Shown here: piece by piece, positions 20,801-33,887 of the stretch
Layout: every line of letters begins with the position of its first letter
Position numbering within the stretch: the stretch's first letter is position 1
NCBI GenBank assembly: GCA_965215685.1
Contig: OZ244113.1
Location: forward strand, 2,606,256-2,670,255
From: Chitinophagales bacterium
GTDB taxonomy: Bacteria; Bacteroidota; Bacteroidia; Chitinophagales; JAHQVX01
Direction of reading: 5' to 3'
Length of the DNA: 64,000 nt
Position numbers and translations under genes: made by a program
Notes under the pieces: model-generated
Told to the model about the DNA's origin: nothing
Databases searched by the model: none
Seen by the model: the letters and a program-made list of their open reading frames with translations, nothing else

Positions 20801-22324
20801 TTATAACCGCTTTAAAGCATTGATCAAAATGGCGGGTTCCAACTCTTGTTGCTGACCACCTTCCATCCACTTAACACTGAATTTTCCGCTTTCCAGCTCA
20901 CGGCTACCTATGGTTACTACGGCCGGAATGCCTTTATCGTTGGCGTATTTGAATTGCTTTTTCAGTTTAAAAGGCTCTAAATACATTTCCGCATTAATGT
21001 TATTAAATCGCAGCTTTTCGACAAAATCAATAACGGCACTTTCATATGCCTTTTCCATGTTTACTACAAGCACTTTGGTAGGGCTTTTTCGCTGAACCTT
21101 CGGAGGCCAAAGGCTTTGACTTTCCATTACATCGTACAAACGGTCTAAACCAAAAGATATACCTACACCTGAAACATCATTTAATCCGAATACAGAGGTG
21201 AGATCATCATACCTCCCGCCGCCGGAAACACTGCCAAAGCCACTATCAGGGATTACCGCTTCGAATATGGTACCTGTATAATAGCTTAGTCCGCGTGCCA
21301 GAGTTATGTCGAAAACTATTGGTTCTTTGCTTATGCTTACTGTACTCACTTTGTTCAAGAGTGATTCCATTTCGCTAATGCCTTCTTCAGCTATAGATGA
21401 TCCGGAAAGCATTTCTTTTAACTGATTTATTTTGTCTTCGTTACATGCGGAAATCTCCAGGACATGCCTAATACTTTCTTGCTGATCTTTATTGAAACTA
21501 CGGTTTTCCAACTCCTTCAACACACCATCAATTCCAATTTTATCTAACTTGTCTATGGCAATGGTCAGGTCCATAAATTTATCAGATGCATTCATGCTCT
21601 CCGCCAAACCCGCCAATATTTTTCTGTTATTTAACCTAAGCCGGTAGTTTTTCAAACCTAACCTGCGGAACACATGATCGTAGATCTGAATAAATTCAAA
21701 TTCGGCCAGCAAGCTGTTGGTGCCAATTACATCGGCATCGCACTGATAAAACTCGCGGTAGCGGCCTTTTTGCGGCCTGTCTGCCCGCCAAACCGGCTGC
21801 ATTTGGTAACGCTTAAATGGAAATGTAATATCATTGCGGTGTTGGGCCACGTAGCGCGCGAAGGGGACGGTAAGGTCGTAGCGGAGAGCCTTGAATGCGA
21901 TATTTTTTTTAAAGACTTTAATATCAAAAAAATTGGAGAGAGATTTTGACTGGGAAGAAGAATATCTATTATTCCATCTGTAAACTGTCCAATCTGCCTC
22001 CTCAATAACTTCAAAATATCCCCCACCAGATACTTTATCAATTTCATGCATTTCCTTGAGAAACTGCTTGATTACTTTATCATCAAGAATTTGGTTGCTG
22101 AGAAAATCTCCGCTATCCAATACGCTAAATAGTAGCTGTTCCCCCTCATCACCATATTTTCCGGTAAGCACATCTAACTTTTCCATAGTAGGCGTTTCAA
22201 TAGGTTCAAATCCAAATAACTCATATACTGCTTTGACGGTATTCAGAATAAAATACCTTTTGTTGAGCTGTTCGGCATTGAAATCGCGCGTGCCTTTTGG
22301 TATGGAAGGATGAATTTTAGACAT
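20801..22324 (-). CDS. hisS: Histidyl-tRNA synthetase
   Basis: N-terminal PKGTRDF motif. Class II aaRS motifs. Anticodon-binding C-terminal domain. Confidence 0.9.
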   Translation of the reverse strand: MSKIHPSIPKGTRDFNAEQLNKRYFILNTVKAVYELFGFEPIETPTMEKLDVLTGKYGDEGEQLLFSVLDSGDFLSNQILDDKVIKQFLKEMHEIDKVSGGGYFEVIEEADWTVYRWNNRYSSSQSKSLSNFFDIKVFKKNIAFKALRYDLTVPFARYVAQHRNDITFPFKRYQMQPVWRADRPQKGRYREFYQCDADVIGTNSLLAEFEFIQIYDHVFRRLGLKNYRLRLNNRKILAGLAESMNASDKFMDLTIAIDKLDKIGIDGVLKELENRSFNKDQQESIRHVLEISACNEDKINQLKEMLSGSSIAEEGISEMESLLNKVSTVSISKEPIVFDITLARGLSYYTGTIFEAVIPDSGFGSVSGGGRYDDLTSVFGLNDVSGVGISFGLDRLYDVMESQSLWPPKVQRKSPTKVLVVNMEKAYESAVIDFVEKLRFNNINAEMYLEPFKLKKQFKYANDKGIPAVVTIGSRELESGKFSVKWMEGGQQQELEPAILINALKRL

Positions 22325-22686
22325 AAAGTGCGAAGATAGTAAGGATTACGTGGTAGAAGTACTATCTTTATACATGAAATTAATTTTCAATATTAATGAA
22401 AATTGAAACACTTGTAGTTATCGCGGGAATCGTGCAAATACTCATTTCATTGGGGTGCATCGTCCTGATTTTGGTTGACACTTTTTTACATTATCCACAG
22501 CGGGATAAGATAGCTGTGTTTTGTAAAGCTAAAATTATATTTTTTCTTTGTGTCATTCAGGCTAAACGGATTCGGGCTCTGACGTGGGGATGTCAACTCG
22601 ATAGGGATAACCTGATGCGATGGAGTTTTATACTTCTCAAAGGTCATCTAAAAGATGACCTTTAAAGAATAATAACTTCAGCGCTT

Positions 22687-23649
22687 TTATGCCTTAATAA
22701 ATTCCCCTTCCACTTTCTTTCGATAATTTTTCCAATGCTTTTTAAGAACTCCTGTCATATTATATGCCTGGTTTGGTGTATGCCAATCAATACTTCTGTG
22801 TGGTCTGTTTTCATTATAAAACCGGATGATTTTTTTGATTTGTTGTTTTCCTTGCTTTAAGCTGTTGAAGCTAAGTTGTTTATCGTCTGTAAACTCCTCT
22901 TTTATGGTTTTATTTACTCTTTCTGCTATAGGGTTTTCCAAAGGGTCGCTTTGTTCTGTCATACTAAGCAGAAAATGATTTTTCTTTAATATCCGCACAT
23001 ATTCATTGCAACAATATTGCACCCCTCTGTCTGAGTGATGAATACATCCTTTTTGCCTGTCTTTGGTATTTGACAAAGACATATTCAGACAAGATAATGC
23101 ACCAGCAGCTGCTAAGCTTTTGCTTAAGCAAAAGCCGATAATTTTTCTTGAATATACTTCAGTGGTTAAAAACAGATAAGAAAAACTGTCTTCTTGGTTC
23201 AACCAAATATAGGTGATGTCTGATACCCAAATTTCATTTGCCCTCTCAGGTTGTATCGTTTTGACCAAATTAGGGTATTTATGATAACGATGATAGCTAT
23301 CTGTTGTTGACACCTTGCGTTTTCTTAGTTTTTTCAATAACCCATGTCGCCGCAGTATATCATAAAATTTATCTCTTCCTATTTTTATCTGATGTTTTTT
23401 AAAATCTGATTGCAAGGCCTTTAGTAAGTTTCTGCCACTTCCTCGCTTCCATATCTGGCGCTTTTGTTCTATTAGCCCAACTATTAAATATTCATCAAAT
23501 GATTGCTTTTCCAACCTACACAAAGACTTGTAGTAAGCCTGCCTGCTGTAACCAAATAATGAACATAGTGCTTTTATTTTCGAATCAGGCCTTTGCCTTT
23601 TAAATGCTTCAATAGTTGGGCTCCATACTTTTTTTAATGTCCAATTCAA
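22687..23649 (-). CDS. IS3-family transposase OrfB (integrase/DDE core)
   Basis: 320 aa rve-type core (HSDRGVQY, D..D..E spacing). Begins with TTG in the overlap with orfA. Confidence 0.8.
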   Translation of the reverse strand: MNWTLKKVWSPTIEAFKRQRPDSKIKALCSLFGYSRQAYYKSLCRLEKQSFDEYLIVGLIEQKRQIWKRGSGRNLLKALQSDFKKHQIKIGRDKFYDILRRHGLLKKLRKRKVSTTDSYHRYHKYPNLVKTIQPERANEIWVSDITYIWLNQEDSFSYLFLTTEVYSRKIIGFCLSKSLAAAGALSCLNMSLSNTKDRQKGCIHHSDRGVQYCCNEYVRILKKNHFLLSMTEQSDPLENPIAERVNKTIKEEFTDDKQLSFNSLKQGKQQIKKIIRFYNENRPHRSIDWHTPNQAYNMTGVLKKHWKNYRKKVEGEFIKA

Positions 23650-23980
23650 GCTGAGCTTCGGCTACTTCTATCATTTTCTCCCATAGATCAGCTCGTAGAT
23701 TAGCTTGATATACCTCTTGTTCTAATTGACGAATACGAGCTTGCATTTGTTCATACTCCTTTGAACGCTTCATACTAGTTAAGTCTTTGATCTTAGAACG
23801 TGGGTTTCGATAATCGTCATTACCACTAAACTTACGCATCCAGTACAAAATTGCGCAATTACTCCTAATTCCATAAACAAGCCTCGCTTCTTCTTTGCTG
23901 TACTTGCCTGATAATACTTCTTGAACCACCTTCCATTTAAATTCCTCTGTATAGTGTTTCGACTCTTTTTCTTTCAGCAT
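23609..23980 (-). CDS. IS3-family transposase OrfA (HTH/leucine zipper)
   Basis: 123 aa. HTH. Heptad Leu repeats (LEQEVYQANLRADLWEKMIEV). Confidence 0.8.
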   Translation of the reverse strand: MLKEKESKHYTEEFKWKVVQEVLSGKYSKEEARLVYGIRSNCAILYWMRKFSGNDDYRNPRSKIKDLTSMKRSKEYEQMQARIRQLEQEVYQANLRADLWEKMIEVAEAQLELDIKKSMEPNY

Positions 23981-24548
23981 TTAATCCTGATTTAAGTTGA
24001 CTTATCCACAATTATTCTGTCAACCTATTTCAGGACTATACACTATTTCAGGACTATACAATGAAGTGATTTGTTCATGCTGATCCCGCAGGTGCGGGAG
24101 AAGGATCTTATACTACGCTGTTTTAATTTTCGGTTTCAAGTTGATTCGCCTTCTCTCTAACCGGCGGTGAAAACACCGCCCGGGGCAGCATTTTTATTTT
24201 TGACATGAGTGTGTCGCTCCTCCGGAGCTTTTTACATATAATTGTTTAGCCGTTACAGAGGTTGCGCCCCTCCGGGGCTGGGGATTAGTTTATAGTGTGA
24301 AAAGTTAGCAATAGCTACGGCTATTCCAAAATTTTCTTCATCGTCTAGCCAAAAAAACTTCTGCCCGCCCGGATGAACCCCGTAAGTACTGGGTTCGGAC
24401 GGGCCCACCCGAACTTACCATTCGCTACGGGCGGGCTTTTATTCAGGAATCTATCAAGTAGAACTGGTATAAACCGGCCTTATCCATAAATCGGTATTGG
24501 ATATTCTAAAAGCTTTCTCTAACGTAATCAACTGGGACGAGATGAAAT

Positions 24549-27494
24549 CTACTTGTTCGGAAAATTAGAAATGATTCGTCTTAAACTTGGTGATGAATTC
24601 CAACTCTCAAATTTGTTCTTAACTAAATCTGAAATGGTAAAACCATATTTGGTCACTAACTCCTTATGTATCTCTAACATTTTTTTTGTATTGGTAAGGG
24701 GCTTGTCGGGCATATTGACAATCATACTATTCAATAAAACCAAAAGTTCAGCATCGGTATTAGGATTAGTACGGAACAACCTTTCAGAGAGTATGTCGGT
24801 GAACCTTTTTAGAGGAAAATAATTCTTGCTCAGCATATAACCTATGTTTTCTCCCAGCAACCTATTATCAACCAATTTTAATTCGGTAAATCTTAGCCAA
24901 ACAGCTGCTGATAAGTCCCTTGCGGTTCTGTCGGAATACAGTAGTGCGTTTGCTAAATATAAATGAGAGCCATTCTTTAATGGAGCTTGTAACTCTAATA
25001 AAGTTTCGTTTACACTCGCAACCAATTTAGCTTCATTTTTACCTCCGCTATCCTTAAGGTTAAATATCTTTTCCGATAATCGGGTCAGGAATGGTTCAAA
25101 GTAATTAGGGAAAAGAAGCAACAATCTGGCAATATCATTATGTTCACTAGTTTGCCATTGATAATTGAACTGGATATTATCATAATTGCTGACTACCTTC
25201 GGTAGAGACTTTTTAAATACCTTCAAAATTTTTCTTACCAGGGACTCTTTATTCTCCTTAATATTTGTACTGGTTACCAACTCTTCGCGTACTCCTTTTT
25301 TCTTGATTCTCTTATATGTTCGCCCGGAATAATCAAAATCTATGTAGGTGTATTCTACTTCTTTTAGTTCAAAATCAACCTTGCCGGCATAGTATTTAAG
25401 GTTATTAAAATTTGAATATTCCTTAAGGGGAAACGCCTCTTCATTCCTGTTAAAAGTTATCCATGAATGGAGTATAGGGGCTTCATAGGTTGTGTTGCTC
25501 GGTTCTCCTCTCTTAGTATTAAAACCAACCATTAAAGCCTGCTTTACAGGTCCATTTTTGAGAGATGCTTCAACTTTTTCTATGGCAGATTCTTTTACAT
25601 CGACTATTAATCTGGATAACGCTATTTGAAAATCAACACTAAACGGCAGTTTGCCATATTCCTCATATTGTTTCAGCCGACCAAGGAAGGTATCAAGGTC
25701 TATTAAACAAGGGTAGTGAGTAGGAGTTGAAAGAAATTGTAATTTAATATTTCTACGCACCAATGTAAGGAAGTTGAACATGTGCTGCTTAGGTATATTA
25801 TAAATCATTGAAGAATAAGCCCACCTTTCGAGACCGTGAATTTGCGTGTCAAAAAATTTATTCTCCTTTGCCTTTCTCCTTTCCTCGTTAACTTCTTTCC
25901 GGTAATATGATTTAAGATTTTTACCGGAATCAGGATACTTCTCAATGAGATGATTTACCAGACTAACAATGGTAGCTGCCATCATTACATCTAAGTATCC
26001 ATCTGTACTCCGCATGTCTTTTTGCAAAAGGTTTATGGCTCTTTGCAAAACAGGCTGTAATTGATCAAGTACCTGATCTGAGTTAAGTTGATCTTGAAAT
26101 TTCAGATAGTAATGTGGCAATAAGTAAAAGTCAATACTGCGGTTATTATCTAAAATTTGACTTAGAAAGAAGATAAAATCATCTATCGTTTTCACCCCAT
26201 CTTCTATTGGAACAGGTTCTGAAAAATCTGGCCTGAAACTTTCACTTTCTAACCCGGTTTGATCAGGTGTCGATTCAGGTATATTATCGTCCAATTCCGT
26301 AATTTCTTTAAGAAATGGATTTAACATCTGCTTGGGCTCGCTAAAAAGATAAGAACTATATAACGCAATCTGTTCTAACAATTCCTTATTCTTATTGTTT
26401 CCGTGTTTCACTATAAGTTTGGCGGTTCTAAGCTGTATATCTTCCTTTTCGTGCACTAAAGCTTGTGATGCTAATGTGGTTATTTGACCTTTGGATTTTG
26501 GTTTTTGAACGGCCACCTTGTCAAGCAAGATAAGAGTAGATTTTACTGTGGATATTACGTCAGATGCTAGTAAAACTGGCACTTGGTCCAAAAACAGTTT
26601 GTGATTGAATTTTGGTTCGGCAACAATTTTTTTTACATTTTGTAAGGCATAGTTTTTAGCCTTACTATGCTCAGATGTTAGAATAAGGTTAAATGCCTCC
26701 TGCTGGTTAATAATTTCCTCAATAGTTGGCTTTAAGAATTTATGTAAGTCGATAAACCAACCGGCATTGGCTCTGCTAAAGTTCCTGTTGGCAGTTAAAA
26801 GACTTTCTTTTAAAACTCTGTTCCTATCAATTTTTCCTGAATCTGTAAAGTCTTTTATTGTTTGTTTCCAAATGTTAACTGTTTTTGGTTTATTATTTCC
26901 AATCCAGGTTTCATCATGCCATTTCATTCCTGTATCGTCTGAAAACAACCACCAGAAATGTTTATTGAGTGTTTCGGGATACTTTAAGAGCATTTCCGGT
27001 TTAATGAGTGCGTAACTTTTCTTTACTTCATCATAATGCCTTTCTATGATCGACCTTGGCAAGGTTCTTACGATAAATTCTCTCTGTAAGGTTATGTATC
27101 CTTTTCTTTCATACTCCATAGCCTTTATATAATCTAAAAAGCCCCATCTTTGTGAAGTACCAGAAAACCACTTCGGACAATACGCCTCAAGTATTTCATC
27201 AAGCATACCTGATTTAAATATCCTATGGAATCCGAAATTCTGCATTTTCTTTGCCGGATGAATAAAAAAGCGAGCAATATCTCTTAGAACTTCCTGTTCA
27301 TCGGTACAAGATCGTTCTATGATATACCGGTTCCTGACCACCTTATGTTCAACTTTAAAATGCTCCTTGAACTCATCTTCAAAAATTTTAGAGAGCTCTC
27401 TTCTTTCCTGTTCGGTTATATTTTTGAAAAACGGGATTATATTGTCACGTTCCTCATTAAGGATTATAGATTTTAAATCGGAAATTTTGCTCAC
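24549..27494 (-). CDS. Large uncharacterized protein (981 aa), partner of the SWIM zinc-finger protein; possibly a DUF4132/MolR-like family member
   Basis: No catalytic motif recognisable by eye. Predicted soluble and largely alpha-helical. Start overlaps the stop of the upstream SWIM gene (ATGA), indicating translational coupling. Confidence 0.6.
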   Translation of the reverse strand: MSKISDLKSIILNEERDNIIPFFKNITEQERRELSKIFEDEFKEHFKVEHKVVRNRYIIERSCTDEQEVLRDIARFFIHPAKKMQNFGFHRIFKSGMLDEILEAYCPKWFSGTSQRWGFLDYIKAMEYERKGYITLQREFIVRTLPRSIIERHYDEVKKSYALIKPEMLLKYPETLNKHFWWLFSDDTGMKWHDETWIGNNKPKTVNIWKQTIKDFTDSGKIDRNRVLKESLLTANRNFSRANAGWFIDLHKFLKPTIEEIINQQEAFNLILTSEHSKAKNYALQNVKKIVAEPKFNHKLFLDQVPVLLASDVISTVKSTLILLDKVAVQKPKSKGQITTLASQALVHEKEDIQLRTAKLIVKHGNNKNKELLEQIALYSSYLFSEPKQMLNPFLKEITELDDNIPESTPDQTGLESESFRPDFSEPVPIEDGVKTIDDFIFFLSQILDNNRSIDFYLLPHYYLKFQDQLNSDQVLDQLQPVLQRAINLLQKDMRSTDGYLDVMMAATIVSLVNHLIEKYPDSGKNLKSYYRKEVNEERRKAKENKFFDTQIHGLERWAYSSMIYNIPKQHMFNFLTLVRRNIKLQFLSTPTHYPCLIDLDTFLGRLKQYEEYGKLPFSVDFQIALSRLIVDVKESAIEKVEASLKNGPVKQALMVGFNTKRGEPSNTTYEAPILHSWITFNRNEEAFPLKEYSNFNNLKYYAGKVDFELKEVEYTYIDFDYSGRTYKRIKKKGVREELVTSTNIKENKESLVRKILKVFKKSLPKVVSNYDNIQFNYQWQTSEHNDIARLLLLFPNYFEPFLTRLSEKIFNLKDSGGKNEAKLVASVNETLLELQAPLKNGSHLYLANALLYSDRTARDLSAAVWLRFTELKLVDNRLLGENIGYMLSKNYFPLKRFTDILSERLFRTNPNTDAELLVLLNSMIVNMPDKPLTNTKKMLEIHKELVTKYGFTISDLVKNKFESWNSSPSLRRIISNFPNK

Positions 27495-28828
27495 TTAATA
27501 ACCTTTTTGACGGCTAAAACGTGCTTGCAAACTCCTCTGTCGCCATGATGCTTTGCAAACCACATACAGGTACACCTTTCCCGTTCGTACTCTAAAAGAA
27601 CGGAATGTTCTACTCCAGTACCCTGCACTCTTGCTTCTACTTTGCCATCGGTTTGACTAATGATTTTCACTTTTCCATCTTCAATCAGTTTATTGGCGGA
27701 TTTAAGACGGGGATTAAGACTTAGAATACGGCTTAACTTAAAAGGTAAGCGTCTGTAGAAATAATGATTTTCGTCCAAATCAAATCCTAAAAGACCAATA
27801 GCTGCCAACTTGGCCGCAGTGGTCTCCACACTTGTCAAGGATAAACCACGGTCAATAGCTAACGACGTAGGATTGAAGAATTGATTTGAATAGCTCAAAT
27901 TGTCCATTTTTTCAATCCAGTCATCTGGCACTTCATCTATTAATGATTCTAGTGCAGCACCTTCTCCTGAATAACCTCTCCAACTATCTCGTGAAATGGA
28001 TAGGCTAAAAACAACAGTGCCAAAGTATAATTGCCAAGTGGTTGATAAAGCCTTGGGATGCGTATATACCTGAACTTTATCTGCCAACGGCATCAAATGC
28101 TCAATAAGCCTTAGTCGATGAGCACCTCCAACGCAGAGGGCATTTTTAGAAGGTACAGGTGACAAGGAAGGCTTGTTGCCACGTATTGTTAAGTAATAAT
28201 CGCGGCGCATATCCTTTTTAGGCACCGTGCGCATGAGTTGTATTGCTTGTGGTTTGTTAAATGTGTGAACCAATTCAGTATCAGCCAAATAAATTTGGAC
28301 AGTTGAGAGTCCTTTTAGCCATTTAGTAGGTAAAGGTACTTTTCGCTCTACCACCTTCTTTCCTTCTGTGCTAACGGTGAATTCTTTTTTTCCTACCGAC
28401 ATCACGAATTTGTGGTTCTTTTGAACAGAGCCCAGGGCAGAAATCATAGGTGAATTAAAATCGACATTGGTTGTTCCGGTATCCAGAAATTCTCCATCAT
28501 GTCCATTAGGAAGAATATCGACCCGGGCATAAGCTCCTGCACAATGGGAGAAAGCCTCAAACCTGATTCGCTCATTGCCGGCCGTAACAATGGGGTCTTT
28601 CAAAGCTGCAAGATCAGCAGGAGATAAGCTAAAGCTTGATTTAACTACTTGTGCCAAAGTAATTAAGCACTTAGACGTGTGATACGGGTCAACCAACTTA
28701 CCCCAAAAGAAACATGGGGTATCCTTTTTTTGAACTTCAGAGTATTTGGATAAAAATAATTCTTCACCCGTTTTAGTTTTTACGATATTAGATGGTGTCG
28801 GATATAAATACGTAAGTGTGTTGCTCAA
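27491..28828 (-). CDS. SWIM zinc-finger domain protein (445 aa)
   Basis: C-terminal CxCx(n)CxH signature: C-T-C-MWFAKHHGDRGV-C-KH. N-terminal about 400 aa without recognisable motifs. Confidence 0.7.
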   Translation of the reverse strand: MSNTLTYLYPTPSNIVKTKTGEELFLSKYSEVQKKDTPCFFWGKLVDPYHTSKCLITLAQVVKSSFSLSPADLAALKDPIVTAGNERIRFEAFSHCAGAYARVDILPNGHDGEFLDTGTTNVDFNSPMISALGSVQKNHKFVMSVGKKEFTVSTEGKKVVERKVPLPTKWLKGLSTVQIYLADTELVHTFNKPQAIQLMRTVPKKDMRRDYYLTIRGNKPSLSPVPSKNALCVGGAHRLRLIEHLMPLADKVQVYTHPKALSTTWQLYFGTVVFSLSISRDSWRGYSGEGAALESLIDEVPDDWIEKMDNLSYSNQFFNPTSLAIDRGLSLTSVETTAAKLAAIGLLGFDLDENHYFYRRLPFKLSRILSLNPRLKSANKLIEDGKVKIISQTDGKVEARVQGTGVEHSVLLEYERERCTCMWFAKHHGDRGVCKHVLAVKKVIK

Positions 28829-29239: not shown

Positions 29240-29776
29240 CTACAAGGTCAAGGCCGCCAAAGCACTTCTTAATCTACCCATCTTGCGCCTTACTCTGTCT
29301 TTTTCACCGCTTAAGAAGTTCATAAAGCTGCTGTTTAAAGTAGCATTATATGCCTTGCTATAATTGATGAATGCCTTTTTTAAGTCTCCTTTCAATTCAA
29401 ATACTCTGGCCTCAATGTAGTACAAGTTTGCCTTGTCAACTTCAGCAACACCTTTGGCTTTTGCAATTAACTTTTCAGCTTCTTCCAACCTGTTGCTGTC
29501 CAATAAAACATACAAGTAGTTTAAATAGGTTGCGCCATATTCGGCTGCATACTTTAAGGCTAATTTGTACATTCTTTCGGCTTCGGTTAAGTCATTCAAA
29601 GCTTCATTGTAAATCCAACCTAACAAGTTATAGGCTCTACCATAGGTAACGTCAATAGCTAACAACTCTTCGATTACCGCTTTAGCTTCGACCAATTTTC
29701 TTTCATCGATCAAATCGCTTGCTCTAACGTATAATTCTTCAACGTATAAATTTTCGTTTCTTTCCATTTTATTCAA
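29240..29776 (-). CDS. Tetratricopeptide-repeat protein
   Basis: Three to four TPR-like 34-residue repeats (AxxYxxLG, AxxxYxxA patterns). Confidence 0.6.
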   Translation of the reverse strand: MNKMERNENLYVEELYVRASDLIDERKLVEAKAVIEELLAIDVTYGRAYNLLGWIYNEALNDLTEAERMYKLALKYAAEYGATYLNYLYVLLDSNRLEEAEKLIAKAKGVAEVDKANLYYIEARVFELKGDLKKAFINYSKAYNATLNSSFMNFLSGEKDRVRRKMGRLRSALAALTL

Positions 29777-29833
29777 GATTTATGGAACCAAGATTCATGA
29801 ATCAAGAGAGTCTTGGCTCTAAAAATCCTGGTT

Positions 29834-31282
29834 CTAGTTACCTTCCATTCTTACAATTTTTGGTAGAAATGTACCCAGTACTCCTACCAAATCAACTTGT
29901 TGCGCCATCACTTCGTGGATGTTTTTGTATGCCATGGGTGCTTCATCCAATCCGCCGCCGATAAGTTCAACTCCATTGTCGCGTAAAAATTTATCTACAT
30001 ACGACTTTGTTAAACTTCCTTTGGCTTTTGTACGGCTCATCACCCGGCCTGCGCCGTGCGATGCAGAGTTGAGCGATGCTCGCTCTCCTTTACCACGTAC
30101 TATAAATCCATGTGTAGCCATAGAACCCGGAATAATTCCCAGTACTCCTTTACCGGCCGGTGTGGCCCCTTTTCGGTGTACTATTACCTCACGACCATCT
30201 TCCAACTTCTCCTTCCAGGCAAAGTTGTGGTGGTTCTCCACCGTTGCCAATGGTCGCTCACCTATGGCCTTGCCTATTCGCCGGTGGATGTCGTGGTGGC
30301 AGGCACTGGCATAATCTCCGGCCAAATTCATGGCCAACCAGTATTCCTCACCTTCCTGTGTATCCAAATTCAACCAGGCAAGATGTTGCGCCACCTTCGG
30401 CAAGGGGGTAACATCTTTGGCCACTTTTGTGTAGTGGCGGGCAATATTGGCCCCCAGTCCGCGAGACCCTGAATGCGATAGCAGGCCCAGGTATTCTCCA
30501 ACGGGCAAACCAAATTCATTGTCTTCTCCTAAGATCTCAACCACACCAAATTCAACAAAATGGTTACCGCCACCGGATGTACCCATCTGCTTGTAAGCAC
30601 GATCTTTCAGATCCCGCACCACCTTAATGTCCTTAAACTCATCGCGCTCAAGTACTTTATCGGCATACGGATTGCTGAACACTTCTTTACCGCCAAAACA
30701 AGTGTTATCCAGTAGGATTCTTTTGAACTTCTCGCTTTCGCCTTTCAACAACCCAACCGGCATATCGTACATTGTCAGGCACATTCTACAACCGATATCA
30801 ACACCTACTCCGTAAGGTATAACTGCGTTATCTGTGGCTAACACCCCACCAATTGGCAAACCGTATCCATGATGTGCATCCGGCATAAGGGCTCCTTCCA
30901 CAGCAACCGGCAACTTTAATGCCGTGTACAGTTGATCTTTGGCACTTTCTTCAATAAAATCTTCGCCATAGATCTTGTGCGGAGCTCTTGAACCGGTTAG
31001 CTCTTGCTTTACCACTTTCACGGGTTCTATCAATTGTTCCACAATTGTTCCCATTACTTCGTCACCCAGGTATTTCTCCGGATTTTCCAGTACGTCTTTT
31101 AATGCATCCAATACCCATTGTTTGCTTTTCTTTTTATGGTATTGCTGCATTTTCCCCAAGGCAATGCCTACCACTTTACCTTGCGGAAATCCTATTTTAA
31201 GGAGGTCTTTGCCTCGTAATTTTAGCTTTGCCATAATTAGACTCTTAGACATAAGCCACAAGACTTTTAGACTTGTGCTCAT
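29834..31282 (-). CDS. rtcB: RtcB RNA 3'-phosphate ligase
   Basis: Conserved RtcB metal/GTP-binding motifs: GGGNHF and SHGAGR. His/Cys/Asp ligands. An N-terminal extension is present, so the true start may be the internal Met at MAKLKLRG. Confidence 0.85.
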   Translation of the reverse strand: MSTSLKVLWLMSKSLIMAKLKLRGKDLLKIGFPQGKVVGIALGKMQQYHKKKSKQWVLDALKDVLENPEKYLGDEVMGTIVEQLIEPVKVVKQELTGSRAPHKIYGEDFIEESAKDQLYTALKLPVAVEGALMPDAHHGYGLPIGGVLATDNAVIPYGVGVDIGCRMCLTMYDMPVGLLKGESEKFKRILLDNTCFGGKEVFSNPYADKVLERDEFKDIKVVRDLKDRAYKQMGTSGGGNHFVEFGVVEILGEDNEFGLPVGEYLGLLSHSGSRGLGANIARHYTKVAKDVTPLPKVAQHLAWLNLDTQEGEEYWLAMNLAGDYASACHHDIHRRIGKAIGERPLATVENHHNFAWKEKLEDGREVIVHRKGATPAGKGVLGIIPGSMATHGFIVRGKGERASLNSASHGAGRVMSRTKAKGSLTKSYVDKFLRDNGVELIGGGLDEAPMAYKNIHEVMAQQVDLVGVLGTFLPKIVRMEGN

Positions 31283-31450
31283 TTTCGTTTATTATTTAAT
31301 TAATTCGAACTCCTTCATGGGGAATTCATGTTTTACCTACTTTTCTTTGTACTTCACAAAGCCTGTATCCTTGCATATTTTTATCTCCAATTTACCATTT
31401 CACTATTAACAAAACAGTGTTGCGAAAGGCTATAGCATTTCGCAAACTGC

Positions 31451-32551
31451 TTATTTGTTTACAAAGATCTCAGACAATTGGTCCACGATTTGGCTTTTAC
31501 CGGAAACGTTGATCTCACCGATCTTCTCTGCAATTCTCTCCACATATTCCATCTCCTTCAATTTCAACAACATCTCGTTGTCTTCCATCAACTTCGCAGT
31601 GTTCAACAAGTTTCTGGTTGCAGCGGTTTCTTCTCTCCTCATAATGCTGTTAGCCTGAGCTTGCTTTTGAGCGATCAACACCTGGTTCATGATATCTTTC
31701 ATATCACCGGGCAAGATGATGTCTTTAACACCTGCATTCAAAACCTCAACACCTAAGATCTGAGATTTCTCAGCTACTTGATCCAAAACGTACTTGCCAA
31801 CGGCTTCTTTGTTGGCCAACAATTCGTCCAAAGTCAAAGTACCAATAAATGCTCTCAAAGCCAATTGCATTTGAACATAGATCTGCTTTTCGTAGTCTTT
31901 GTTCTCCAACAAGGCCTTTTCTACATCAGTTACTTTGAATTGAGCATCAAAGTTGATCCTTAAAGCCGCCTTATCCTTGGTCAATAACTCCTGACCAGTG
32001 ATCTCCATTTGTCTTTTTCTCATATCAGCACTTAAGATCTTGACTTCATTTGCATTCTTCCAAAACCTGTAAGTACCAGTTTCCAATTGCTTTACGAAAT
32101 CACCATCTACCATTAACATGGCTTTTTCGTAAGGCTCAACGAAAAAAACTCTCATGTATCTCAACACTTCAGGTTTTTGCAAAATTGCTTTGTCCAAAGT
32201 GCCGTCAACTTCTAAGTCATTTAAGTTAATAACCTTGAAATCATATTTCATTATACCTTTCCAGAAGGCATATCTACCGGCCTCCAAAACTTGTTTGAAG
32301 TTGCCGTTTTCATATTGCAAGGCGATTTCGTTGTCTTTAACTTCAACTACAATTAACCTTTTGGCTAATTGTTTATCCTGCAATAAGATGTTCAACTCAA
32401 CAGGTGCATAGAAAGGCCTGGTTTTGTCATAGATCATTACCTGATCGAACAAACCGATCCAATACTTGCCCGCAGTCAAGCTTCTCTTGTATTCACCTTT
32501 TCTGCTGAATACTAAACCTACATTGTAGGCTGGAATTTCTATCCTTTTCAT
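31451..32551 (-). CDS. SPFH/band-7 (flotillin/slipin-like) domain protein with N-terminal extra domain
   Basis: C-terminal half has SPFH-like beta/alpha core followed by an Ala/Gln-rich coiled coil (IAQKQAQANSIMRREETAA). There is no N-terminal TM anchor. Confidence 0.6.
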   Translation of the reverse strand: MKRIEIPAYNVGLVFSRKGEYKRSLTAGKYWIGLFDQVMIYDKTRPFYAPVELNILLQDKQLAKRLIVVEVKDNEIALQYENGNFKQVLEAGRYAFWKGIMKYDFKVINLNDLEVDGTLDKAILQKPEVLRYMRVFFVEPYEKAMLMVDGDFVKQLETGTYRFWKNANEVKILSADMRKRQMEITGQELLTKDKAALRINFDAQFKVTDVEKALLENKDYEKQIYVQMQLALRAFIGTLTLDELLANKEAVGKYVLDQVAEKSQILGVEVLNAGVKDIILPGDMKDIMNQVLIAQKQAQANSIMRREETAATRNLLNTAKLMEDNEMLLKLKEMEYVERIAEKIGEINVSGKSQIVDQLSEIFVNK

Positions 32552-33039: not shown

Positions 33040-33300
33040 CCTACATCTTCAATGTAGTGCTCTACCAACTGAGCTATTCCGATTCGTGGTCGGAAACGGG
33101 AATCGAACCCGCGCATCAGGGGCTATTGTTCTATCCACTGAACTATCCCGAAATAATATCGGGAGCAGGAGTCGAACCTGCGACCTATAGCATGGCGACA
33201 AAACCAATCAACTACAAACGGCATATAACATTCCATAGGAGCTACACCGCCGTGTTATACAGAAACACAAGCTGTAAGTTTGCTTGTATCATGTATTTTG
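33040..33300 (-). pseudogene. Cluster of degenerate tRNA-like fragments
   Basis: Reading the minus strand, the region contains in order:
- a tRNA-Phe(GAA) 5' half (acceptor, D arm, anticodon arm) lacking a T arm;
- a 65-nt tRNA-like unit with D arm, T arm and acceptor but a truncated anticodon arm;
- a T-arm plus 3'-acceptor fragment GCAGGTTCGACTCCTGCTCCCGATA;
- a 13-nt tRNA 5' start GGCGGTGTAGCTC. Confidence 0.55.
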
Positions 33301-33528: not shown

Positions 33529-33612
33529 TGGGAGAGATTGGATTCGAACCAATTCAGCACGAAAGCACCGGATTTACAGTCCGGCACGGCTCTCCAACTC
33601 CGTCGCACTCCC
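33529..33612 (-). tRNA. tRNA-Tyr (anticodon GTA), long variable arm
   Basis: Manual fold. Acceptor GGGAGTG/CTCTCCC (one mismatch). D stem ACGG/CCGT. Anticodon stem CCGGA/TCCGG with loop CTGTAAA. Variable hairpin GTGCTTTCGTGC. T arm ATTGG-TTCGAAT-CCAAT. Confidence 0.75.
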
Positions 33613-33656
33613 AATTGTTGGTCAGGCAGGCCTTGAACCTGCTACCTCCAGAGTTG

Positions 33657-33728
33657 AAGCCGAAACAGGATTTGAACCTGTACCACCGAGTTCAAAACCC
33701 GGTATCCTTGCCATTGGACCATTCGGCT
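33657..33728 (-). tRNA. tRNA-Gln (anticodon TTG)
   Basis: Acceptor AGCCGAA/TTCGGCT. D arm GTCC-AATGGCAA-GGAT. Anticodon stem CCGGG/CTCGG with loop TTTTGAA. T arm ACAGG-TTCAAAT-CCTGT. Confidence 0.8.
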
Positions 33729-33734
33729 TAGAAG

Positions 33735-33808
33735 CGGTGACGGACGGACTTGAACCGACAATCCACTCGCAGACAACGAGGTACATTCACCAAATATGCT
33801 GCGCCACC
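33735..33808 (-). tRNA. tRNA-Asp-like (anticodon GTC), slightly non-canonical
   Basis: Acceptor GGTGGCG/CGTCACC (one GU). Anticodon loop TTGTCTG (position 37 is T). T stem with one T-T mismatch. Six-nt spacing to neighbours like the other array members. Confidence 0.55.
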
Positions 33809-33814
33809 ATCATG

Positions 33815-33887
33815 TATCAGGTACGGGGCTCGAACCCGTGTCTTCGCTGTGAAAGAGCGAGATCCTGGCCAACTAGACGAACCTGAC
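33815..33887 (-). tRNA. tRNA-Glu (anticodon TTC)
   Basis: GTCAGGT-TC-GTCTAGTTGGCCAGGA D arm closely resembling bacterial tRNA-Glu. Anticodon stem TCGCT/AGCGA with loop CTTTCAC. T arm ACGGG-TTCGAGC-CCCGT. Acceptor 3' strand ACCTGAT. Confidence 0.85.

Follow-up and report, generated by a model that had tools for sequence, protein, structure and literature searches.

A SWIM zinc-finger protein of the type XIII retron accessory family, with a predicted clamp-like fold, is encoded in a two-gene module with a DUF6493 solenoid protein

In the 64,000-nucleotide (nt) stretch of Chitinophagales bacterium contig OZ244113.1 analysed here (contig positions 2,606,256 to 2,670,255; hereafter the window, numbered from its first letter), two large open reading frames (ORFs) on the minus strand constitute an autonomous, compact two-gene operon. 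The upstream gene, gene 1 (27491-28828, minus strand), runs from a TTG start to a TGA stop and encodes a 445-amino acid (aa) protein with clamp-like, winged-helix and SWIM zinc-finger parts; at the position of this TTG codon, all homologues begin with Met (MS[DE]T...). The downstream gene, gene 2 (24549-27494, minus strand), starts with GTG and encodes a 981-aa, all-alpha solenoid of the HEAT/ARM type. A first-pass annotation of this DNA had located both ORFs correctly and had noted their 4-nt overlap, which reads GTGA rather than the ATGA given there, and in which the GTG start of gene 2 lies over the TGA stop of gene 1 (27491-27494, minus strand). In most related loci the two genes likewise overlap or are separated by a short gap (roughly -4 to +60 nt), with a few wider spacings. 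Approximately 115 nt past the gene 2 stop codon lies an intrinsic-terminator-like hairpin, GCCCGCCCG...CGGGCGGGC followed by U7 (24351-24436, minus strand), which, judging from its sequence, is probably the end of the operon. The spacer downstream of gene 2 had a folding z-score of -2.85 and had been described as hairpin-dense; it is best read as the terminator plus small hairpins. A repeat element or a retron RNA was also considered for this spacer and rejected, as the spacer is not repeated within the window. Gene 2 is somewhat AT-rich (~35% GC vs ~40% or more in the flanks). Neither ORF is a chance occurrence, because homologues are numerous (>1288 for the gene 1 protein) and Pfam families cover the gene 2 protein.

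The SWIM finger at the C-terminus of the gene 1 protein, CxCx12CxH, was already recognised in the first-pass annotation and is confirmed here as C419-x-C421-x12-C434-x-H436, a motif that is invariant across the family. It is encoded at 27521-27574 within a SWIM domain of residues ~385-445 (27494-27676), which is preceded by a winged-helix region (residues ~300-380; 27689-27931) and by a predicted two-domain fold resembling PCNA and other sliding clamps (residues ~10-285; 27974-28801), all on the minus strand. A near-invariant loop, R-G-[FY]-S-G-E-G (residues 284-290; 27959-27979, minus strand), is found at the junction of the clamp module and the winged helix. A family-wide acidic motif, D78-x7-E86-x4-E91-x31-D123-x37-E161 (28346-28597, minus strand), lies within clamp domain 1; D78, E91 and E161 were invariant and D123 was near-invariant among 51 diverse family representatives. 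The protein is basic, with an isoelectric point (pI) of 9.2, and had no Pfam match at E <= 0.01. An exhaustive profile search recovered 1311 representatives of 50%-identity clusters, 359 of them at E<1e-30, and nearly all of these representatives were ~450 aa in length and matched over their full length. In the gene 2 protein, Pfam detected DUF6493 (26556-27482; 7e-59), DUF7824 (25554-26198) and DUF7825 (24567-25211), and a disordered acidic linker (26217-26300) and a long beta-hairpin (25269-25376) were also delineated, again on the minus strand. Pfam, NCBIfam and fold searches recognised no catalytic domain in either protein, in agreement with the earlier impression, gained by eye, that neither carries an enzymatic motif.

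Comparison of the gene 1 protein with the PADLOC models of defence proteins gave a match to SWIM_XIII (E=5.8e-58), along with a weak match to PDC-S62 that was confined to the finger. Mx162 was among the first retrons ever found. Together with Mx65, Sa163 and Ne144 it belongs to the type XIII retrons, which consist of a reverse transcriptase (RT) and two accessory proteins (Mestre et al. 2020, PMC7736814). According to the same study, the "primary" accessory protein, cluster 114_1, carries the motif Dx7[D]x4Ex30-32Dx37E, in which Glu is allowed at the bracketed position in close homologues, as well as a winged helix and a C-terminal SWIM finger CxCx12CxH, while the other accessory protein is usually a HEAT/ARM-repeat protein (PMC7736814). 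Residues D78, E86, E91, D123 and E161 of the window protein fit the published spacing exactly, and by sequence the gene 1 protein and the primary type XIII accessory protein belong to one family. The gene 2 protein, a HEAT/ARM solenoid by fold, matched no PADLOC model at E<=1; homology to the HEAT/ARM proteins of type XIII retrons (clusters 216, 259, 1688 and 3262) is therefore no more than a possibility. Apart from the finger-only match, SWIM_XIII was the sole PADLOC-DB v2 match of the module, and with the partner unmatched and the RT missing no catalogued defence system was present with all its required genes.

In type XIII retrons a clade 10 RT is encoded beside the accessory genes, and an msr-msd RNA adjoins the RT. 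No RT accompanied the module in any set searched. A six-frame scan of the 64-kb window found no RT motif, PADLOC detected no retron RT among 354 genes neighbouring ~125 related loci (±3 genes), a motif search of all ORFs of the metagenome loci was negative, and the four RefSeq-annotated plasmid loci contained no RT. The "RT_UG29" (RTasDnaG-like) model gave one match in each of two neighbour sets; the best explanation of these matches is a pair of proteins, the only homologues shared across the sets, that Pfam assigns to DnaG primases. General Rfam models, among which none is dedicated to type XIII, detected no msr/msd or other noncoding RNA (ncRNA) in the flanks of the module, and neither Rfam nor an all-against-all blastn comparison of 400-bp upstream regions found a conserved upstream ncRNA, the upstream regions being not conserved between genera. 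Because no RT was found in the window or among the neighbours, the module represents an RT-less relative of the type XIII accessory pair, and, judging from the samples examined (1311 cluster representatives), most of the family seems to be of the RT-less kind.

A model of the gene 1 protein was built with AlphaFold2 from a 76-sequence alignment and had a mean predicted local distance difference test score (pLDDT) of 77.6 and a predicted template modelling score (pTM) of 0.74. When the model was compared with PCNA using Foldseek, the probability was 1.00 and the template modelling (TM) score, normalised to PCNA, was 0.60-0.66. The predicted architecture consists of a clamp-like module (residues ~10-285), the RGFSGEG loop, a winged helix and the SWIM finger. 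The loop is probably flexible, because confidence was low there (pLDDT ~53 at residues 281-290). In this model, the DEDE residues that were earlier read as a transposase or nuclease signature lie within clamp domain 1, and no RNase-H-like structure was present among the listed fold matches. Profile searches against PDB sequences gave no clamp match, Pfam detected no clamp domain in the gene 1 protein, and neither protein showed a sequence-level link to a solved structure.

A scan of 185,579 species genomes for relatives of gene 1 yielded at least 530 confirmed loci, of which the best 80 were all from Bacteroidota. With our own ORF calling and clustering, 79 of 84 Bacteroidota loci had a large partner gene next to the SWIM gene and in the same orientation; the remaining 5 had no partner gene within reach. 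The pairing also holds outside this group: in 80 metagenome loci of a distant subtype, a hidden Markov model of the Bacteroidota partner matched the gene directly downstream (59 matches), which amounts to essentially every locus with enough sequence. In RefSeq, plasmid examples from Cytophagales, Alphaproteobacteria, Betaproteobacteria and Streptomyces are annotated as a "SWIM zinc finger family protein" followed by a "DUF6493 family protein", with a 4-nt overlap in two of these annotated loci. The proposal that these ORFs form a conserved, translationally compact and uncharacterised two-gene system is thus borne out. The order SWIM→partner was found in Cytophagia, Chitinophagia, Sphingobacteriia and at the window locus, and one or two partners precede the SWIM gene in Chryseobacterium and Parabacteroides, where the extra copy has often decayed to fragments. 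Three partners were present in Dysgonomonas, and Bacteroides has the SWIM gene followed by two. Named members of the gene 1 family also came from Actinomycetota and Planctomycetota, and the family therefore spans at least Bacteroidota, Proteobacteria, Actinomycetota and Planctomycetota. The module was present on 17 of 72,556 plasmid records. A phage origin was considered and rejected, as collections of viral contigs and phage genomes gave no matches. The distribution is patchy, and the module is accessory rather than core.

The two genes have evolved very differently. The SWIM protein retains 78-81% mean column identity across Bacteroidota classes, and at 60-70% identity between SWIM proteins, identity between the corresponding partners is down to 26-31%. 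Paralogous partners inside one locus are only 24-31% identical, and their copy number varies from 1 to 3. The combination of a single constrained core with one to three divergent solenoids is suggestive of an unchanging platform whose adaptors or sensors can be exchanged. In some lineages the module seems to be dispensable and in decay: in Mucilaginibacter sp. CAU 1740 (locus L028, 10001-11341) the SWIM gene is split into ORFs of 265 and 147 aa, and in many Chryseobacterium species (for example at L043, L050, L055, L064, L071 and L073) the second partner copy consists of fragments of 92-366 aa.

We then considered the genes around the module, reading recurrence from the top 25 families of each neighbour census. 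The neighbourhoods were very heterogeneous and mostly metabolic or housekeeping (147, 131 and 182 different Pfam families), and defence genes, integrases and toxin-antitoxin genes were sporadic. A conserved third gene was sought and rejected, as no partner recurred among the 354 neighbours except RNA-repair genes. In the window, genes for a TPR protein (29240-29776), the RNA ligase RtcB (29834-31282) and an SPFH/Band-7 protein (31451-32551), identified by Pfam/NCBIfam, lie upstream of gene 1 and are co-oriented with it on the minus strand. This SPFH-RtcB-TPR group (29240-32551) is a possible functional neighbour of the module, which does not imply membership in it. The gene rtcB had been counted among the housekeeping flanks, but RNA-repair genes are the one recurring neighbour class of the module.

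RNA-repair cassettes (RtcB/RtcA, Pnkp/Hen1, Ro60, RlaP) adjoin the module in six independent lineages, including that of the window. Their arrangement varies: RtcB…TROVE-RlaP-RlaP→SWIM (L019), TROVE-Hen1-Pnkp→SWIM in Pontibacter (L001), a convergent Pnkp-Hen1 pair downstream of the module in Sabulibacter (L021), and TROVE ~1 kb downstream of the module in 24 of 32 Chryseobacterium loci. In L087 the order is SPFH-RtcB-RtcA-Hen1 fragment-Pnkp fragment→SWIM, the SPFH-RtcB-RtcA group being located directly upstream of a divergent SWIM/DUF6493 pair. The L087 module is of a different subtype, with a SWIM protein 39-42% and a partner 22-25% identical to the Bacteroidota type, and its Pnkp remnant is 76% identical to the Pontibacter Pnkp. 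When the SWIM proteins were clustered at 80% identity, 81 lineages were obtained, of which 47 had flanks of 8 kb or more; RNA-repair neighbours were present in 6 lineages. With a handful of such genes per genome, an RNA-repair gene would be expected by chance within ±10 kb in ~1-2% of genomes; the observed 7-13% of lineages is suggestive, not proof, of a linkage.

Several additional features of these neighbourhoods were observed. Two contigs with 100% identical SWIM genes differ in their upstream DNA (L086, 59-985; L087, 4720-5444): in L087 an N-terminal Hen1 fragment is fused beside a C-terminal Pnkp fragment, and in L086 an Mrr_cat restriction-endonuclease domain precedes the same Pnkp remnant, a difference that shows decay and replacement of the RNA-repair cassette at the module junction. 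In Pontibacter virosus (L001, 1-3314 and 14573-20816), the module and its RNA-repair cassette lie inside an apparent conflict island containing a YobI-type ATPase, an RHS fragment, a WYL regulator, a Multi_ubiq/ThiF/BubE ubiquitin-like system and AbiEii. Directly 3′ of the TROVE/Ro60 gene of Chryseobacterium (L041, 12368-13885) lies an orphan motif of Rfam, Flavo-1 RNA (RF01705), with 64.8 and 62.4 bits, above the gathering score, at L041 13917-14005 and L071 13870-13957 (minus strand); it might be the Y-RNA counterpart of Flavobacteria. Between the tRNA array of the window and its SPFH-RtcB cassette, two matches to YrlA (Y RNA-like, RF02553) at 33041-33189 (minus strand) scored 34.7 and 31.8 bits (E = 1e-4 and 9e-4), below the gathering score of 69, and overlap a tRNA-like match at 33088-33152 (33.2 bits) that was not called by ARAGORN; this segment may encode a tRNA-like or Y-like RNA partner of the SPFH/RtcB cassette. 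Genes for replication proteins, namely DnaG twice and the ribonucleotide reductase alpha subunit once, were found a few kb from the SWIM gene in unrelated lineages (L025, 13740-15719; L155, 3241-5094; L166, 4908-6689), probably by chance, although this is notable given the clamp-like fold.

As a whole, this information leads us to favour, tentatively, a reading in which the module is a clamp-like nucleic-acid platform with exchangeable adaptors that is linked to RNA damage and repair responses. Within the gene 1 protein, the clamp together with the winged helix would bind a nucleic acid that is structured or damaged, while the SWIM finger and the RGFSGEG loop would dock the HEAT solenoid, which would act as an exchangeable adaptor or sensor; such a role would explain why one to three divergent paralogues serve one conserved core. 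The ligand would be the multicopy single-stranded DNA (msDNA) in type XIII retrons and, in the RT-less form, a nucleic acid of the cell or of an invader. RNA with damaged ends is the most plausible candidate for the latter, given that RtcB/RtcA, Pnkp/Hen1, Ro60/TROVE and RlaP cassettes are repeatedly encoded immediately upstream in the same orientation. The module would thus be a platform or sensor alongside RNA-damage and repair responses and not a nuclease of a recognised fold. A bolder version, which we consider unlikely, is that these proteins are an unrecognised class of bacterial clamp-like platforms that serve no replicative polymerase, acting in RT-less modules as a "tool-belt" or sensor that joins damaged or structured RNA to RtcB, Pnkp/Hen1 or Ro60-type repair enzymes through exchangeable HEAT adaptors, and that the clamp holds or threads the unusually long msDNA in type XIII retrons. 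Several points weigh against the platform reading. The fold comes from one AlphaFold model (pLDDT 78) of a single chain, the gene 1 protein is basic overall, unlike PCNA, and its invariant acidic residues could form an unrecognised catalytic site. Furthermore, RNA-repair genes are missing from the 10 kb around the module in ~87-93% of lineages, and with most loci lacking such a gene the linkage could reflect co-location in accessory regions; moreover, the blastn comparison of upstream regions found no conserved ncRNA accompanying the module.

The main rival, which we regard as somewhat unlikely, is an anti-phage, abortive-infection pair in which the SWIM protein is a toxic effector, its acidic residues form a nuclease-type site and the fast-evolving HEAT sensor restrains or triggers it; this would be the presumed mode of retron XIII with direct sensing and without msDNA, the adjoining RNA-repair cassettes aiding recovery or counteracting damage. 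The PADLOC SWIM_XIII match fits this view, as does the listing of a cluster 114_1 homologue among putative nuclease effectors (Mestre et al., PMC7736814), and the rapid divergence of the partner, the variable copy number with decaying partner copies and a split SWIM gene, the patchy distribution (at least 530 loci among 185,579 species genomes), the occurrence on some plasmids and the occasional defence-island, integrase or toxin-antitoxin neighbours are all consistent with it. However, the putative effector is far more conserved than defence effectors usually are, and its predicted fold is that of a clamp and not a known nuclease fold; this conservation and this fold argue against an effector/sensor pair. 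Neither an RT nor any other known defence partner was detected, most neighbours are metabolic or housekeeping genes, the viral and phage collections lack the module, and no defence phenotype of type XIII retrons was found in the literature searched. The suggested context of accessory and defence cargo beside a mobile element finds weak or mixed support: an IS3 element does adjoin the module in the window and defence-island neighbours occur occasionally, whereas most neighbours are of other kinds and no insertion sequence (IS) recurs. The predicted PCNA/9-1-1/beta-clamp fold and the very high conservation would also suit an accessory factor of DNA replication or repair, that is, an alternative sliding-clamp-like protein tethering a scaffold to DNA for chromosomal maintenance. 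The moderate, 16S-correlated and partly vertical inheritance reported for type XIII homologues (PMC7736814) and the proximity of DnaG (no more than a few kb away at two unrelated loci) and of ribonucleotide reductase (adjoining in Asticcacaulis) point the same way. We nevertheless consider such a factor improbable: the gene is accessory and not core, its genomic context is variable, pseudogenised copies exist, and clamp loaders, polymerases and DNA-repair enzymes are not among the recurring neighbours, which are RNA-repair and not DNA-repair genes.

Two further identities concern the families themselves. The first-pass annotation had likened the pair to YehQ (SWIM) and MolR/YehI (DUF4132), systems working with MoxR/VWA ATPase modules, and in superficial architecture, a SWIM-finger protein beside an alpha-helical protein of ~1000 aa or more, the likeness is real. 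Beyond the zinc finger, however, there was no sequence or profile similarity: BLASTP against YehQ gave E=0.78 and hhalign aligned the finger only (E=0.05, probability 1%), YehI/MolR showed no BLASTP or profile similarity, and Pfam found DUF6493, DUF7824 and DUF7825 only, families different from DUF4132. MoxR or VWA genes, proposed as informative neighbours, were present neither in the neighbourhood of the module in the window, nor among the recurrent families listed for the 354 neighbours, nor in the four RefSeq-annotated loci. This identity is thus largely refuted at the family level and very improbable. MuDR-type transposases carry SWIM fingers, and a domesticated or decaying MULE/IS256-like DDE transposase combining DEDE residues with such a finger would be in keeping with the adjacent IS3 element; we find this hardly credible. 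A transposase origin was suggested by Mestre et al. from the DEDE motif (PMC7736814), whereas in our model these residues lie in a clamp-like fold.

The two gene families are already catalogued, through their RefSeq names, the Pfam DUFs and the PADLOC SWIM_XIII model. In the literature searched, which did not cover a 2016 comparative RNA-repair study, we found no paper on DUF6493, DUF7824 or DUF7825; we likewise found none that connects a clamp fold with the accessory proteins of retrons, and no experimentally tested role of the type XIII accessory proteins. The only published guess for the retron XIII accessory protein is a transposase-derived nuclease. The present analysis indicates instead that this conserved protein is predicted to be clamp-like and not a recognisable nuclease, that the copies found with retrons appear to form a minority within a two-gene family that is much larger and RT-less, and that RNA repair is its sole recurring partner in the genome. 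Should these indications be borne out, the interpretation of type XIII retrons would change, a non-replicative family of clamp-fold proteins would be added to bacterial biology, and a biochemical entry point into DUF6493, DUF7824, DUF7825 and poorly understood RNA-repair loci would be gained.

The remaining context named in the first-pass annotation, an IS3 element, hisS, rtcB and a tRNA array, was all present in the window. The IS3-family element (22456-24042, minus strand; NCBIfam transpos_IS3, 1.4e-59) lies ~500 bp downstream of gene 2 and comprises orfA (23609-23980) and orfB (22687-23649), both on the minus strand. Its terminal inverted repeats, at 24018-24060 and 22456-22480, are TGTATAGTCCTGAAATAGGTTGACA and TGCATCGTCCTGATTTTGGTTGACA (reverse complement of the other end), and the left end carries a tandem duplication of its outermost 18 nt (24043-24060). 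Because IS elements do not recur beside related modules, this element is incidental. The hisS gene (20801-22324) was identified by Pfam/NCBIfam. In the tRNA array (33529-33887), ARAGORN reports Tyr, Gln and Glu only; a fourth tRNA at 33735-33808 (minus strand), which ARAGORN missed, was detected by Rfam (41.2 bits).

Among known systems, the type XIII retrons are the closest. Both contain a SWIM protein paired with a large alpha-solenoid protein, and the gene 1 protein has the DEDE motif, winged helix and C-terminal SWIM finger of cluster 114_1. The module differs in that its solenoid is of the DUF6493/7824/7825 type, which the PADLOC models do not recognise, and in gene order, the SWIM gene usually preceding the solenoid gene in RT-less modules and the HEAT/ARM gene usually coming first in retrons. 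The sliding clamps (PCNA, 9-1-1 and beta) share with the gene 1 model tandem clamp domains with clamp topology, but sequence identity is ~9%, PCNA is acidic where the gene 1 protein is basic, the clamp module is fused to a winged helix and a SWIM finger, and no clamp-loader gene recurs near the module in the neighbour censuses. A conserved acidic motif within the predicted clamp domain is a further difference, as such a motif is not known from canonical clamps. E. coli YehQ and YehI/MolR similarly combine a SWIM-finger protein with a very large alpha-helical protein encoded nearby, but the MoxR-VWA genes yehL and yehP accompany them in E. coli and such partners were not among the recurrent families listed near the module. 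The MuDR/MULE transposases and their FAR1-type derivatives have a C-terminal SWIM finger with conserved acidic residues upstream of it; here those residues are predicted to lie in a clamp-like and not an RNase-H-like fold, and there are no transposon ends. Finally, the RNA-repair cassettes (RtcB-RtcA, Pnkp-Hen1, Rsr (Ro60/TROVE) with Y RNA, and SPFH-RtcB) adjoin the module in the six lineages described, but most modules occur without these neighbours, and the module itself has no ligase, kinase, phosphatase, cyclase or methyltransferase domain.

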